Origin: Chiloscyllium plagiosum
Taxonomy: Eukaryota
DNA: 20,000 bases
Direction of reading: 5' to 3'
NCBI RefSeq assembly: GCF_004010195.1
Contig: NC_057749.1
Location: forward strand, 8,366,057 to 8,386,056
A model generated the notes under the pieces. It worked only from the letters and a program-made list of their open reading frames with translations, ran no database searches and was not told the DNA's origin. Below, piece after piece: positions 996 through 20,000 of this stretch. Made by a program: the position numbers and the translations under genes. Positions within the stretch are counted from its first letter, which is position 1. Every line of letters begins with the position of its first letter.

Positions 996-1130
996 GAAAA
1001 CAGGAAGAACTGCGGATGCTGTAAATCAGAAACAAAAACAGAAATTGCTGGGAAAGCTCAGCAGGTCTGGCAGCATCTGTGGAGAGAAATCAGAGTTAAC
1101 ATTTTGGGTTCAATAACTCTCCCTCAGAAT
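996..1130 (-). mobile_element. Penelope-like terminal repeat (pLTR) fragment with decayed hammerhead motif
   Basis: Shares CAGCAGGTCTGGCAGCATCTG..AGAGTTAAC with 2680-2928, 8166-8377 and 9651-9775. Minus strand reads TTCTGAGGGAGAGTTATTGAACCCAAAATGTTAACT, a degenerate CUGANGA..GAAACGUU. Confidence 0.65.
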
Positions 1131-1254
1131 CAACAGAAAGGTTTCTCAGCGGCATTCCAATAGGATATGGGAGCCATTTCTACATTACTGTACAGAACAA
1201 TGTTATGACATAAGCCCCATTAGTTACAAGATATGTCAAAGAGATGAAGACTAA

Positions 1255-2679: not shown

Positions 2680-2928
2680 ATAAAACAGCGGATACTGGAA
2701 AACAGGAATCAAATAAACCAGTTGGACGATAACCCAGTGTTGTGTACCTTCTGACTTTGTCCACCCAGTCCAACACTGGCGCCTCCACAGCATCTGCGGA
2801 GAGGAATCAGAGTTATAGTTTCAGGCCTGGTTCTGTAGAATGGTCACTGGCCCCAAAACGTTAACTCTCATTTCCCTCCACAGATGTTGCCAGACCTGTT
2901 CAATCTTTGCAGCAATTTCTGTTTGTGT
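2680..2928. mobile_element. Inverted pair of Penelope-like terminal repeats; left arm interrupted by another repeat fragment (~2708-2788)
   Basis: GCATCTGCGGAGAGGAATCAGAGTTA (~2790-2815) is the reverse complement of TTAACTCTCATTTCCCTCCACAGATGT (~2861-2887). Decayed hammerhead on + at 2829-2866. Confidence 0.65.
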
Positions 2929-4346: not shown

Positions 4347-4569
4347 AGTCGAGACTGTGTTGCTGGTAAAGCACATCAGGTCAGGCAGCATCTGAAGAGC
4401 AGGAGAATCGATGTGTTGGGCATAAGCCCTTCATCATGATTCCTGATTAAGGGTTTATGCGCGAGACACCGATTCTCCTGCTCCTCGGATGCTGCCTGAC
4501 CTGCTGTGCTTTTTCAGCACCACACTCTCAACTCTGACCTCTAGCATCTGCAGTCCTCAGTTTCTCCTA
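4347..4569. mobile_element. Palindromic element made of two inverted Penelope-like terminal repeats (~190-bp hairpin plus 3' tail)
   Basis: 4347-4436 is the reverse complement of ~4442-4533. Only the right arm continues into the CTCTAGCATCTGCAGTCCTCAGTTTCTCC tail. Confidence 0.8.
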
Positions 4570-5461: not shown

Positions 5462-5598
5462 ATTGGAAAGCAAAAGTGAGAAGTGCAGATTCCAGAGATT
5501 AGAGTCAAGAGTGTGGTACTGGAAGAGCACAGCAGGTCAGGCAGCATCCAAGGAGCAGGATAATCAACGTTTTGGGCAAAAGCCCTTCATCAGGAGAG
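5462..5598 (-). mobile_element. Solo Penelope-like terminal repeat with hammerhead motif and 10-bp target-site duplication
   Basis: CTACCAGATC at 5452-5461 and 5599-5608. Minus strand reads CCTGATGAAGGGCTTTTGCCCAAAACGTTGAT. Confidence 0.8.
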
Positions 5599-7429: not shown

Positions 7430-7898
7430 TTGATTTTTGATTTTATTTGGTTTATTATTATCACATGTACCTACATACAGAGAAAAAAATTGTTTTGCAT
7501 GCAGTACAGGCAGATCATACTGTACAACGTGCATTAAGGTAACAGAACAGAGTGAGGGATACAATGTTATGGCTGCAGAGATGATGCACAAAGAACGAGG
7601 TCAACATTAAATTTAAAACTTGAAGTTCCTTTCAGAAGTTTAATAACAGCAGGGAAGAAGCTGTTCTTGAATCTGTCGGTATGTGTGTTTAAGCTTTTGT
7701 ATCTTCCATCTGACAGAACACGTTTGAAGCGATAATAACTGGGGTGGGAGGGGCGTTTGATGATCTCAAGACAACGAGAAGCGTAGATAGAGTCAATGGA
7801 TGGAAGGTTGGTTTGTGTGATGGACTGGGCTGTGTTCACAACTCTCTGTAGTTTCTTATGGTCCTGGGCAGAGCAGTTGCCATATCAAGCTGTGATGC
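7430..7898 (-). mobile_element. Rex1/Babar-like LINE 3' fragment
   Basis: ORF 7567-7839(-) reads TAQSITQTNLPSIDSIYASRCL..IIKRPSHP..GRYKSLNTHTDRFKNSFFPAVIKLL, the Rex1/Babar C-terminal motif. Degenerate (AAATC)n tail. Confidence 0.8.
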
Positions 7899-8165: not shown

Positions 8166-8377
8166 AATAAAGCAAAAAAAACCCGCAGATGCTGGAAATC
8201 TGAAATTCAACAGGTCTGGCAGCATCTACGCACAGAGAGAAGCAGCGTTAATGTTTCGAGTCCAGTGACTCGTCACCATTTCTGAAAAGTCACCAGACTC
8301 AAACCCTTAACTCTGCTTTCTCCACACAAATGCTGCTAGACCTGCTGAGTTTCTCCAGCAATCTTTGCTTTTGTTTA
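8166..8377. mobile_element. Inverted pair of Penelope-like terminal repeats
   Basis: CAGGTCTGGCAGCATCT..GCAGCGTTAA versus TTAACTCTGCTTTCTCCACACAAATGCTGCTAGACCTG. Only the left arm has the GCAGATGCTGG tail. Confidence 0.7.
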
Positions 8378-9107
8378 TGAACTCTCTATCAACCAAGCCA
8401 AGATAATAGGGTCTATGAGCATTGCATCTGTTGAAAAGCAAATCAAATTTGTTCAACAATTTTGCAGTCCTACTGTCTTTTTTGCACTAAGTATCCTTTT
8501 GTTTTTAAACCCACCACCAACTCACCCAATCATTTAATCTAAAACAAGCAATAAGTTACAAACATTGCCCACTAGGGCAGTGCAACAATAACAAAGGGGA
8601 CAGGTGGGGAAAGAGGAAGATGTTAAATTAAAACCAAGTTGGAGGGGGTACTCCAACTCCCATGGTGCCCACCTCTCTCTAATTGCTTACTAAGTGCAAT
8701 CCTTTCGGTGCAATACCTCTAACAAAACACCCGGGCTTCCTGCAACCTTCATCTATTTTTAACTCAACCTGTTTAGTTATTTCGTAACATACCTCTGAAC
8801 CAGTTTTATATTCTCTAATCTGCCAATGTCAACAGGTCTGGCAGCATCTACGCACAGAGAAACATTTGGTCCCTCCAAAAGACCTATCCATTTGCCTGGA
8901 TCATTAACATTGGGCAGCCTAGTGAAGATCTTGCATGTTGTATGTCAGAGATACTGCTTGGTTCACCAGTGGGTGAACAGATGCTTACACTGAAGCAGAC
9001 ACCCGACAAAACGTGTGAATAGCATGCACTTTTTCATTATTTGTTCATGGGACTTTTCTCCTTTCAGAAACTCCTTACAGAAACTCATTTCAATTCTGAA
9101 GAAGAGT

Positions 9108-9650: not shown

Positions 9651-9775
9651 GAGTCATAGCGGACATGAAACATTAACTCAGTCTCTCTCGCCACAGAAGC
9701 TGCCAGACCTGCTGACTTTCTCCAGAAATATCTGTGGTTGCCACTGACTTCCAGCATCCACAGTATCTTGCTTTG
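9651..9775 (+). mobile_element. Penelope-like terminal repeat, 3' part (5' part at 9092-9110, split by the LINE)
   Basis: GAGTCATAGCGGACATGAAACATTAACTC..GCTGCCAGACCTGCTGAC..TTCCAGCATCCACAGTA. Confidence 0.65.
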
Positions 9776-13585: not shown

Positions 13586-14472
13586 GAGTTGAAAAGTGTG
13601 GCGCTGGAAAAGCACGGCAGATCAGCCGCCATCCAACATTTCGGGCATAGGCCCTGCATCAGTAATGTAGGGGAGGGAAGGGAGGGCTGAGAGATAAATA
13701 GGAGAGGGCTGCTGGGGCTGTGGGGAAGGTAGGTGGGATGGGTATGGGGGGATAATTGTGATAGGTCAATGGGGAGGTGGAGTGGATAGGTGGATAGGAA
13801 GATAGACAGGTAGATCAGGTCAAGATAGTGCCAACTTGGAGGGCTGGGTCTGGATGTGGTGGGGGGAAGGGGAAATTGACGTTGATGACGTGTGGTGGGA
13901 ACGTCCTAAAGCAGAAGATGAGGCGTTCTTCCCCCAGGTTTCGGGTGGCTTGGGTTTGGCAGTGGAAGTGGCCCAGGACTTGCATGTCCTTGGTGGAGTG
14001 GGAGGGGAAGTTGAAGTGGTCGGCCACAGGGCAGTGGGGCTGTTTGGTACGGGTGTCCTGGAGATGTTCCCTGAAATGCTCCACAGGTTGGCGTTCTGTC
14101 TCCCTGATGTAGAGGAGACCACATCGAGAGCAACGGACGAAGTAGATGAGGTGAGTAGATGTGCGGGAAAATATCTGCCAGGTGTGAAAAGATCTTTTGG
14201 GGGCTTGGACAGAGGTGAGGGGGGAGGTGTGTTTGTAGGTTTTACACCACTTGCGGTGGCAAGGGAAGGTACCAGGAGTCAAGGGTAGGTTGGTGGGGGA
14301 GTAGACCTAATGAGGGAGTCATTAGGAGTCGCAGAGGGAAAGGTCTCTATAGAATGCAGGTAGGGTTGGGGAGGGAAATATATCTCTGATGGTGGGGTCT
14401 GATTGTACAATCCTACAGAGATGTCACCATACAGAACTCTAACTCTCCAGCATCTGCAGTACTCACTTTCTC
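13586..14472 (-). mobile_element. Penelope-like retroelement 3' portion: decayed GIY-YIG endonuclease, 3' UTR and pLTR; the 3' tail is inverted at 14435-14472
   Basis: ORF 13815-14282(-) reads PGTFPCHRKWCKTY..STHLIYFVRCSRCGLLYIRETERQPVEHFREH..PVADHFN..HS, i.e. a decayed Cys linker plus the IY..C..C..YIGET..R..EH GIY-YIG signature. pLTR at 13586-13665. Confidence 0.88.
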
Positions 14473-16730: not shown

Positions 16731-17553
16731 CAGATTGTTTTGCTATAACGCGATAGTTGTGTTCTTCTGCAACCTTTCGCATAGAAAATCATGCAATGGA
16801 AAACTGCTGTAGAAACCCGCATTATGGAAAAATGCTATAGAAAATCACGCGTTATGGAAAACTGCTACAGAAACCCTCATTATGGAAAACTGCTATTGAA
16901 AATCACACAATGGAAAACTGCTATAGAAAATCGTACTATGGAAAGCTGCTACAGGAAATCGCGCAATGGAAAATTGCTACAGAAACTCACGCAATGGAAA
17001 ACTGCTGTAGAAAATCACAATATGGAAAATTGTGATAGAAAATCATGCTATAAAACTGTGATAGAAAATTGTGTTATGCTATAGAAAATCACGCGTTATG
17101 GAAAACTGCTATAGAAACCTGTGTTATGAAACACTGCTATAGAAAATCGGACTATGAAAAACTGCTATAGATAATCGCGTCAGGGAAAACCACTATAAAA
17201 AATCATGCCATAGAAAACTGCTATAGAAAACTGCTATAGAAACTTGTGCTATGGAAAACTGCAATAGAAAATCACAAAATTGAAAACTGCAATAGAAAAT
17301 CACAATATGGAAAACTGCAATAGAAAATCACACTATGGAAAACTGTTATAGATAATCGCACTAGGCAAAACTGCTATAGAAAATCATGCTATGGAAAACT
17401 GCTACAGAAAATCACACTGTAGAAGATCGCTAATAGAAAATCGTTCTACCTATTCAGTAGAAAGTTTGCATTATCCTAACAAAGTCCACAATTTGTCAAT
17501 CACATTATAGCCAATTCGCACTGACTAAACATGCATTATAGCAGAACAGCTTG
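16731..17553. mobile_element. Tc1/mariner-pogo(Tigger)-type MITE with an internal minisatellite
   Basis: Imperfect TIRs: CA|CAGATTGTTTTGCTATAACGCG (16729-16752) versus the reverse complement of the right end, TA|CAAGCTGTTCTGCTATAATGCA (17532-17555); 17/24 identical. TA-type target site. Confidence 0.7.
16781..17447. repeat. Minisatellite, ~23 copies of a 28-bp dimeric unit ATGGAAAACTGCT + ATAGAAAATCRCRCT
   Basis: Units read directly, alternating 13-bp and 15-bp related monomers. Confidence 0.95.
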
Positions 17554-19394: not shown

Positions 19395-19560
19395 AATGCT
19401 GTCCGTGGGATTTGTTGAGTTGCAACTACATGTCTGAGCTACACCTCAGAAGTGACCTTATCTAAAGCACTGCTGTGCTTTTCCAGCACCACACTTTTTG
19501 AATTTAGGGCAGCCTTCCATTTGTAAAAGGTGCTATATAAGTGCAAGTCTTCCTTTCTTT
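19395..19560 (+). mobile_element. Decayed Deu-SINE tail with a small pLTR fragment inserted (~19465-19500)
   Basis: TGCTGTCCGTGGGAT..CTACACCTCAGAAGT..GTAAAAGGTGCTATATAAGTGCAAGTCTT; insert CTGCTGTGCTTTTCCAGCACCACACT. Confidence 0.5.
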
Positions 19561-19777
19561 GTAGTAGCCAAGAAAGAAACATGTGTCATGTGAGCTATCC
19601 TATCTCCCATTCAGAGGGGAGTCAGGGTGTCTGTTTAATACCTCACTGGAAATGTCAATCCGATTGAGCACTCAAATTTCTGGATTAGGGCTTGAATCCA
19701 CAGTCTTGTACTTCAGAGGCAGAAAAAAAAGGCATTCTGAATCAGCAGTGAATCATCTCAACAAACAGTGCCCAAAA

Positions 19778-20000
19778 CTAAAATCTGGATTAGTGGTGCT
19801 AGAAGATCACAGCAGTTCAGGCAGCATCCAAGGAGCAGCGAAATCGACGTTTCGGGCAAAAGCCCTTCATCAGGAATAAAGGCAGTGAGTCTGAAGCGTG
19901 GAGAGATAAGCTAGAGGAGGGTAGGGGTGGGGAGAAAGTAGCATAGAGTACAATAGTTCAGTGGGGAAGGAGATGAAGGTGATAGGTCAGGGAGGAGAGG
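19778..20000 (-). mobile_element. Young Penelope-like element 3' end (pLTR plus 3' UTR), continues beyond the window
   Basis: Same layout as 13586-13830: pLTR followed by G-rich GAGAGATAAG..GGTGGGGAGAAAGTAG..GTGATAGGTCAG. CpGs retained. Confidence 0.85.
19841..19877 (-). ncRNA. Minimal type I hammerhead ribozyme motif (PLE-associated, dimer type)
   Basis: Minus-strand RNA AUUC-CUGAUGA-A-GGGC UUUU GCCC-GAAAC-GUC/GAUUU: complete catalytic core, 4-bp stem II, palindromic ACGU stem III. Predicted cleavage between 19846 and 19845. Stem I is weak (one U.U mismatch). Confidence 0.7.

Follow-up and report, generated by a model that had tools for sequence, protein, structure and literature searches.

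The 3' end of the window, as the whole stretch of 20,000 nucleotides of Chiloscyllium plagiosum DNA analyzed here is called, carries on its minus strand a sequence that an earlier note, made from the letters alone, had read as a hammerhead ribozyme (HHR) with an intact core in a terminal repeat of a Penelope-like element (PLE). The locus raises the question whether this motif is a genuine ribozyme of the PLE kind, and whether this particular copy, termed the 19846 copy after its predicted cleavage position, still cuts RNA. Taken as a whole, the reading that the motif is the hammerhead of a PLE 3' module, that it lies in one 5'-truncated arm of an inverted pair, that the locus is a relic and that efficient self-cleavage is unlikely here is considered very likely.

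Results and Discussion

Structure of the motif

The minus strand reads CUGAUGA-A-GGGC-UUUU-GCCC-GAAA-CG-UC from 19873 to 19846. These letters bear out the strand, the coordinates, the extra A, the complete core and the loop-less ACGU described in the earlier note. The core C3-U4-G5-A6-N7-G8-A9...G12-A13-A14...U16.1-H17 is present in the 19846 copy with no substitutions, together with the G10.1-C11.1 closing pair and a paired helix II. Helix III is palindromic and has no loop, which is the form that permits dimers. In helix I, AUUC (19877-19874) faces GAUU (19845-19842) and forms G-C, A-U, U.U and U-A, that is three of four pairs; the U.U mismatch at 1.3-2.3 is found in the subfamily of the 19846 copy. 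Judged from these letters, the scissile bond is predicted between 19846 and 19845, and the location of C17 agrees with the cut after GUC that had been proposed. The motif is a genuine minimal type I hammerhead of the PLE kind, and it is intact. Its parts, and the other copies in the window, are listed in Table 1.

Table 1. Positions of the hammerhead, its flanking module and related copies in the window.
Feature	Position	Strand	Remarks
Minimal hammerhead	19846..19873	-	Based on strand reading, core pattern, descriptor and exact 28-mer genome count
C3-A9 (CUGAUGA)	19873-19867	-	
Unpaired A between A9 and G10.1	19866	-	
Helix II GGGC/GCCC	19865-19854	-	4 bp, loop UUUU
G12-A14	19853-19851	-	
Palindrome ACGU	19850-19847	-	A15.1-C15.2-G16.2-U16.1, loop-less, replacing stem III
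C17	19846	-	
Helix I, 5' strand	19874..19877	-	Positions 2.1-2.4 = C,U,U,A
Helix I, 3' strand	19842..19845	-	Positions 1.1-1.4 = G,A,U,U, directly past the predicted cut
Rest of the putative 3'-terminal module, downstream of the ribozyme	19775..19841	-	
Non-coding stretch upstream of the ribozyme	19878..20000	-	In longer copies, separates the HHR from the ORF end
Decayed copy of the same family	5566..5593	-	G12>A and C17>U, both CpG sites; 5' truncation ~4 nt before the motif
Head-to-head palindromic pair of two decayed A2-type copies	4410..4470		Motifs at ~4410-4437 (-) and 4443-4470 (+); centre near 4440
Decayed copy CTGATGC..GGGCCTATGCCC..GAAATG	13595..13732	-	Internal deletion
Older sister family, GGGUC/GACCC-type stem II	1009..1132	-	Mutated core
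Same older sister family	2828-2928	+	Mutated core
Same older sister family	8297-8380	+	Mutated core
Same older sister family	9686-9764	+	Mutated core

Sister families and covariation

The first 100 genome matches listed for a loose hammerhead descriptor (given below) were classed by eye, and about 77 were A-type, 13 belonged to family B, 8 to F and 1 to D, with 1 left unclassed. A-type motifs have an unpaired A, helix II GGGC/GCCC, the palindrome ACGU with UC, and helix I GAUU/AUUC, which becomes a perfect GAAU/AUUC in A3; their loops are UUUU, UUAU, CUGU, UCAU or UAAU, and N7 is U or A. Family B also has an unpaired A, combined with helix II GGAGC/GCUCC, the palindrome AGCU with UA, and helix I GUG/CAC. 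Both F families have an unpaired U and the palindrome ACGU. F1 (with UC) shows helix II GUUACCU/AGGUAAU and helix I UGG/CCA, and F2 shows GUCACCU/AGGGGAC and UGC/GCA at the corresponding places. A nucleotide past A9, be it A, U, C or G, is unpaired in every family listed.

Pairing was counted in 11 hand-picked representatives (six A-type, three F1 and two F2) that stand for perhaps 3-5 independent lineages; the two rows of family B were left out, as their MAFFT alignment was off by one column. Pairs were formed in 87.1% of the 85 cells of these representatives, compared with 23.5-43.5% when the 3' partner was slid by 1-3 columns. Changes on both sides occurred in 4 of the 11 pairs, three of them in helix I and one in helix II, and the covariation score was reached by none of 500 shuffles. 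The 10.1-11.1 pair is GC in eight representatives and GU in the other three. At three of the four pairs of helix I, both partners differ between families. None of the 13 invariant core positions varies among these families with their differing helices. The covariation of stem II, on which the earlier note had made its reading depend, is thus found between families but not within family A, where stem II is constant apart from decay.

Link to Penelope-like elements

For the analysis of the surrounding repeat, 44 distinct copies were compared, taken from 3-kb loci around exact motifs, from refetched regions and from the window. The comparison supports placing the 19846 copy in the 3'-terminal (pseudo-LTR) module of a PLE, because its 127-nt upstream stretch and its 3' module are homologous to other copies, some of which retain a remnant of the ORF. 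The PLE link made in the earlier note is confirmed at the level of the family by these upstream remnants, which other copies carry ~190-210 nt from the motif. They consist of broken frames located between 190 and 720 nt before the motif in three loci with readable upstream sequence (L022, L025 and L033), which read ...PCHPRNCKTC...NVIYCILCSRCGLLYIGETG... and ...FREHLRDT..PVAQHFNSPSHS..LEEERLIFRLGTLQPQGINVDF before a stop, and which harbor a CxxxxCxxC motif followed by YCIxCSRCGLLYIGETG. With residues 278-404 and 369-455 of P0002, the frames share 70% and 74% identity. P0002 is an uncharacterised shark protein with weak matches to GIY-YIG (21.7 bits, cut-off 22.6) and RVT_1. P0006, a more distant match from axolotl, lies above the cut-offs of both GIY-YIG and RVT_1. 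Pfam searches of the three broken frames themselves yielded no family even at E<=1, GIY-YIG included, so the link to GIY-YIG comes via the homologues P0002 and P0006. A genome search with the Pfam GIY-YIG model gave one weak match among the 150 scored of 14,403 candidates. According to PMC8557442, EN+ PLEs are defined by a reverse transcriptase (RT) together with a C-terminal GIY-YIG domain. The position of CxxxxCxxC before the GIY-YIG region hints at a linker of the Neptune/Nematis type rather than that of Poseidon, as far as the residues can tell. Stretches of N lie just upstream of the motif in 10-12 of the 44 sampled copies, where the ORF of the element would be, and in one locus (L034) a 2.4-kb block of N separates two motifs that face away from each other.

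The ends of the copies are also informative. Homology upstream of the motif ends between 0 and at least 459 nt from C3 among the 44 copies, which amounts to variable 5' truncation; in 13 of them it ends within 15 nt of C3, and two more meet N stretches there. The 3' ends, assessed by eye, reach about +130 (...GTTTTTACCT) in 24 of the 44 copies, most of the remaining copies terminate around +93 to +99 (...CTAATCCAGA), and three already before that. The long and the short class are ~35 nt apart. Inverted head-to-head pairs were found among the family copies as well. These two classes of 3' ends, the 5' truncation and the inverted pairs fit the anatomy of PLEs, whose hallmarks, as given in PMC8557442, are a 'tail' of 30-40 bp that only one end carries, heavy truncation at the 5' end, partial tandems, and a neighbouring copy that is inverted and itself 5'-truncated. 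The tail is tied in PMC11167929 to two adjacent start sites of reverse transcription.

Copies that begin 0-15 nt upstream of C3, such as those in L003, L014, L020, L021, L029 and L030 and at 5566-5595 of the window, are units of 105-140 nt that hold the whole uncut ribozyme. The junctions of the head-to-head pairs in L038, L045 and at 4440 of the window are located at the same place just before helix I. A preferred RNA 5' end or a template-switch point just before helix I is what these ends point to. The possibility that the short copies start at the 5' end of a cleavage product was rejected, because the 5' ends of these copies precede the entire motif.

The 19846 copy, its inverted sister and other copies in the window

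The 19846 copy ends near 19775-19780 (~+95 to +98 from C3) and lacks most of the ~35-nt tail. On its other side, homology of the stretch 19878-20000 to other copies extends to the window edge. The copy lacks its 5' part and is young. An inverted sister copy carrying the full tail is located ~1.5 kb away, outside the window, with its motif at position 1417 (+) of L037, a sequence of 9.9 kb beyond the window whose first 1,366 bases, in which the ORF belonging to the 19846 copy would be expected, read N. The sister and the 19846 copy show ~3 differences in ~146 aligned positions (-49 to +97). The two copies therefore represent the arms of one head-to-head insertion unit of ~1.8 kb, which is young, with ~2% divergence between its arms. 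A non-LTR retrozyme, that is a head-to-tail array, was considered and rejected, since the window contains no same-strand intact copy and the nearest partner is the inverted one ~1.5 kb off. A 40-nt fragment of the same tail family is present in opposite orientation at 19463-19504 (+), 270 nt from the 3' end of the 19846 copy; joints classified as 'opposite strands' in the mapping of RNA reads are due to this inverted fragment.

All other copies in the window are visibly decayed, so the claim that only the 19846 copy has retained an unmutated core holds. A search with its 28-mer at up to 3 mismatches found one further match in the window, 5566-5593 (-), with the changes GAAA>AAAA and GTC>GTT. 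The lethal changes in the dead copies of the window fall on CpG (CCCG>CCCA and CGTCG>CGTTG), and CpG decay would be the expected route in a methylated vertebrate genome. The decayed copy at 13595-13732 (-) has the upstream non-coding stretch in common with the 19846 copy.

The arms of the palindromic pair span 4347-4439 and 4441-4533. Sub-threshold Rfam matches to mir-1791 (38.9 and 37.6 bits; gathering score 75) and mir-2007 occur on both strands at 4371-4510; they result from the near-perfect palindrome that the two head-to-head element tails form around 4440. Inverted element tails can thus mimic miRNA precursors. A tandem array at 16797-17508, in AT-rich sequence, repeats with a period of 28 nt (16 overlapping copies of 203 nt) and is unrelated to the hammerhead family.

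Proposed origin and role of the module

Most probably, the motif is the hammerhead in the 3'-terminal module of a 5'-truncated copy of a Penelope-like retrotransposon, and the 19846 copy would be one arm of a head-to-head inverted pair created at insertion. In source elements the RT-GIY-YIG ORF is expected to end ~190-210 nt before the module, and the element 3' end to follow ~70-100 nt after it. By analogy with known PLE ribozymes, two copies may pair via the ACGU palindrome and helix I to form a double hammerhead. This structure, possibly aided by protein, would cut after C17 and thereby process the element RNA. At this locus, the motif is probably a young passenger relic. Its core would be intact because three CpG sites are still undecayed, rather than because the locus is under selection.

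A different role for the module, which we regard as rather unlikely, is that it is kept mainly as a structure for RT/EN protein binding or template recognition, or as an unrelated parasite of PLEs, and that in vivo the RNA is cut incidentally or not at all. For one Poseidon element, PMC11167929 reports that cleavage occurred only with added protein, that RNA-seq ends at the site were not found and that catalytic HHR mutants had no effect on in vitro insertion. Naiad PLEs proliferate without HHRs, and that 'HHRs simply parasitize PLEs' is offered as a possibility in PMC8557442. The short copies mentioned above (13 of 44, plus the two that meet N) begin upstream of C3 and not at the cleavage site, which indicates that the retrotransposed RNAs carried the whole uncut ribozyme. 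However, identity of the 13 invariant core positions across families with differing helices is the signature of selection on catalysis, not on a hairpin of just any kind. Likewise, the alternative hairpin that family A can form (see below) is impossible in family B, as judged by reading of the sequences, and is therefore not the conserved feature.

Transcription and cleavage at the locus

The 19846 copy itself might still be live: a minus-strand transcript could form a dimer, either in trans or with a same-strand copy far away, and cut itself or its partner, thereby breaking a host transcript. The complete set of core nucleotides speaks for this, as does the occurrence of the family among poly(A) RNA reads. 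Even a partner whose core is dead could, by the geometry, be cut in principle if it has a U17 site, as 5566-5593 (-) does, and HHRs of PLEs and amphibians are reported to cleave better as dimers (PMC6765202, PMC7229834). However, the nearest same-strand copy is ~14.3 kb off and has a dead core, and a 4-nt palindrome with a 3-bp helix I makes a weak trans interface. Folding predictions, in which tertiary contacts and proteins are outside the model, also argue against a live copy. The minimum free energy (MFE) structure of the monomer (-11.4 kcal/mol) is an inactive hairpin, in which U4-G8 pair with C15.2-G1.1 atop stem II, and the double-hammerhead pairing reaches only -10.3 kcal/mol compared with -27.3 kcal/mol for the MFE structure of the dimer. 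In addition, any transcript that reads through both arms would, judging from the letters of the inverted sister, trap the motif in a duplex with that sister of at least 146 bp.

A Pfam search of the 21 open frames of at least 90 aa in the window detected no host gene. The sole match was to NopRA1; it was sub-threshold, probably spurious, and located in a TE-like frame at 7567-7884 (-). This open frame encodes 105 aa (YGNCSAQDHKKLQRVVNTAQSITQT...FKNSFFPAVIKLL), and its translation resembles what we take to be the C-terminal part of another retroelement ORF.

RNA reads were assessed in X8, the one RNA run that yielded any, a poly(A) single-cell library of which ~2% was read and which has low power and is of a type unsuited to cleavage ends. 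Coverage was confined to the repeat part 19778-19882, where it was equal for either orientation, with maximum depths of ~107 in one and 114 in the other. Depth was zero on the unique flanks at 19505-19777 in this run, and no pile-up of molecule ends was observed. This result is weak evidence against cleavage. Among the X8 reads, 29 align from 19844 upward and have a further part that does not align; the consensus of this part is family-like with many A>G changes (agreement 0.8). A>G is the commonest class of difference in the run (11 of 26 places). These reads could reflect hyper-editing of double-stranded RNA formed by inverted copies, differences between subfamilies or an artefact of sequencing.

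That the copy might retain self-cleavage, perhaps inside a host pre-mRNA, was suggested in the earlier note and finds no support: no host gene was found, the unique flanks are at zero depth and a same-strand intact partner is not nearby. The U.U in helix I, the monomer fold that sequesters U4-G8 and the inverted sister with its ability to pair point in the same direction. A live copy that breaks host transcripts is accordingly judged very unlikely, and meaningful self-cleavage of the 19846 copy in vivo is just as little to be expected. As background, PLE minimal HHRs (min-HHRs) are described as having low in vitro activity even as dimers (PMC4209133), and the in vivo role of PLE hammerheads is left open in PMC11167929. 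The locus is best described as a relic that carries an intact hammerhead.

Genome-wide abundance and chance occurrence

Matches were counted on both strands of the genome of 3,556,477,427 bases, with a reversed-pattern control for each pattern. The exact 28-mer is present 18,175 times (control 0), and 108,987 times if up to 2 mismatches are allowed (control 0). The pattern CTGANGANGGGCNNNNGCCCGAAACGTH, which describes the A-type with intact core and stem II, gave 94,213 matches (control 0), and the loose descriptor CTGANGAN{9,22}GAAASSTH gave 228,954, with 7,988 in the control. These counts show that the intact core is the majority form of the family and not a rare survivor; with 18,175 exact copies, the impression of rarity given by the earlier note was misplaced.

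The loose core CTGATGA N{4,30} GAAA N{0,12} GTC has one match in the window and at least one in 18 of 200 shuffles, and is by itself weak evidence. The full descriptor, comprising core, paired stem II and palindromic helix III, had 0 matches in 5 mononucleotide shuffles (110,840 bases). The Infernal search proposed in the earlier note did not recover the motif. None of the Rfam hammerhead models (Hammerhead_1, _3, _II, HH9 and HH10) matched at gathering score or at E<=10, either in the whole window or in 19780-19940 alone, and no Rfam model of any family reached its threshold within the window. Hammerhead_1 and Hammerhead_3 describe the same catalytic core as the 19846 motif, yet gave no match at E<=10. 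Such a negative result is to be expected from models that are limited with regard to variants with a loop-less helix III, and is not counter-evidence, although it remains a negative; the published PLE hammerheads came from RNAmotif descriptors rather than covariance models (PMC4209133). That the hammerhead likeness within the repeat arose by chance, as the shuffle matches of the loose core and the missing Rfam matches might suggest, has a negligible probability in view of genome counts far above their reversed-pattern controls, the 0 descriptor matches in shuffles, and helices I and II that covary among families while the core stays invariant.

The counts obtained here exceed the ~4,000 min-HHRs given for coelacanth and the ~9,000 given for Xenopus in PMC4209133. 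The loose-descriptor count also exceeds the 126,247 hammerhead motifs reported for the far larger genome of axolotl (PMC7229834), bearing in mind that descriptors differ between studies. About one third of the sampled copies are mini-units of 105-140 nt that start 0-15 nt upstream of C3 and end at either of two 3' ends ~35 nt apart, which look like the tail signature of PLE reverse-transcription start. We tentatively raise the possibility, itself rather doubtful, that this genome has the densest hammerhead load yet (~2.2x10^5 above background) and that SINE-like units composed of helix I, hammerhead and RT entry site are mobilised uncut. If the SINE-like reading is true, the young intact copies, which are often inverted pairs, would be a large source both of trans-acting ribozyme halves and of long double-stranded RNA.

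The single locus is of little importance: the ribozyme-bearing retrotransposon of which it is a young fossil belongs to a known kind. At the scale of the genome, 18,175 unchanged copies of one 28-nt ribozyme sequence and more than 200,000 minimal hammerhead motifs overall deserve attention. This makes the genome a good natural system for asking whether PLE hammerheads cut in vivo, because with thousands of identical young copies a family-wide 5'-OH or 2',3'-cyclic-phosphate signal would be strong. Part of the repeat also occurs at high depth in contigs of run X2, which is labelled as a different organism, and 799 pieces there show a likeness of 99% or more. At least one further species thus has the family in common, or one very close to it.

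Comparison with known systems

The kind of ribozyme found here is already known from the work of Cervera and de la Pena 2014 (PMC4209133) and of Lunse, Weinberg and Breaker 2017 (cited in PMC6765202). The features of min-HHRs listed in PMC4209133 comprise a nucleotide between 9 and 10.1, the G10.1-C11.1 pair, a palindromic 15.2-16.2 and a short helix I. Like the metazoan PLE min-HHRs, the motif has the core CUGANGA...GAAA...UH, the unpaired nucleotide, G10.1-C11.1 and a palindromic loop-less helix III. Its helix I, with three of four pairs formed, may count as the short helix I of ~4-5 bp next to the core that belongs to this kind. The motif shares with them the location in the terminal repeat of an RT-GIY-YIG element, the many and mostly solitary, 5'-truncated or inverted copies, and the occurrence of several consensus families per genome with compensatory changes. 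In contrast to the PLE min-HHRs of Schistosoma, in which helix II has 7-8 bp, helix II has 4 bp here, and the subfamily of the 19846 copy also shows the U.U mismatch in helix I. No title or abstract on PLE hammerheads of cartilaginous fish was found among the papers listed in a literature search; supplements may list such species.

The Poseidon element PAc of Anolis carolinensis, as described in PMC11167929, is a PLE with a pseudo-LTR HHR and a tail signature, which the two 3'-end classes ~35 nt apart resemble. The ORF of PAc begins at stem II, with the cut site 26 bp within it, whereas here the AUG of CUGAUGA opens a frame of only 17 codons and the motif is located downstream of the EN domain, near the 3' end.

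Animal non-LTR retrozymes are, according to PMC7229834, short non-autonomous sequences whose type I hammerheads act as dimers in vertebrates; they are related to PLE pseudo-LTRs and reach high copy numbers, and in these respects they resemble the family studied here. A relationship of vertebrate retrozymes to PLE pseudo-LTRs is also put forward in a preprint by Li, Clavereau and Pollet 2026, in which one chondrichthyan was sampled. Retrozymes, however, are tandem units of 170-400 nt with canonical helix III hairpins and give rise to circRNAs (PMC7229834). Short direct pairs are present in only a few of the sampled copies, and the 19846 copy is solitary or, together with its sister, inverted, and has a helix III without a loop.
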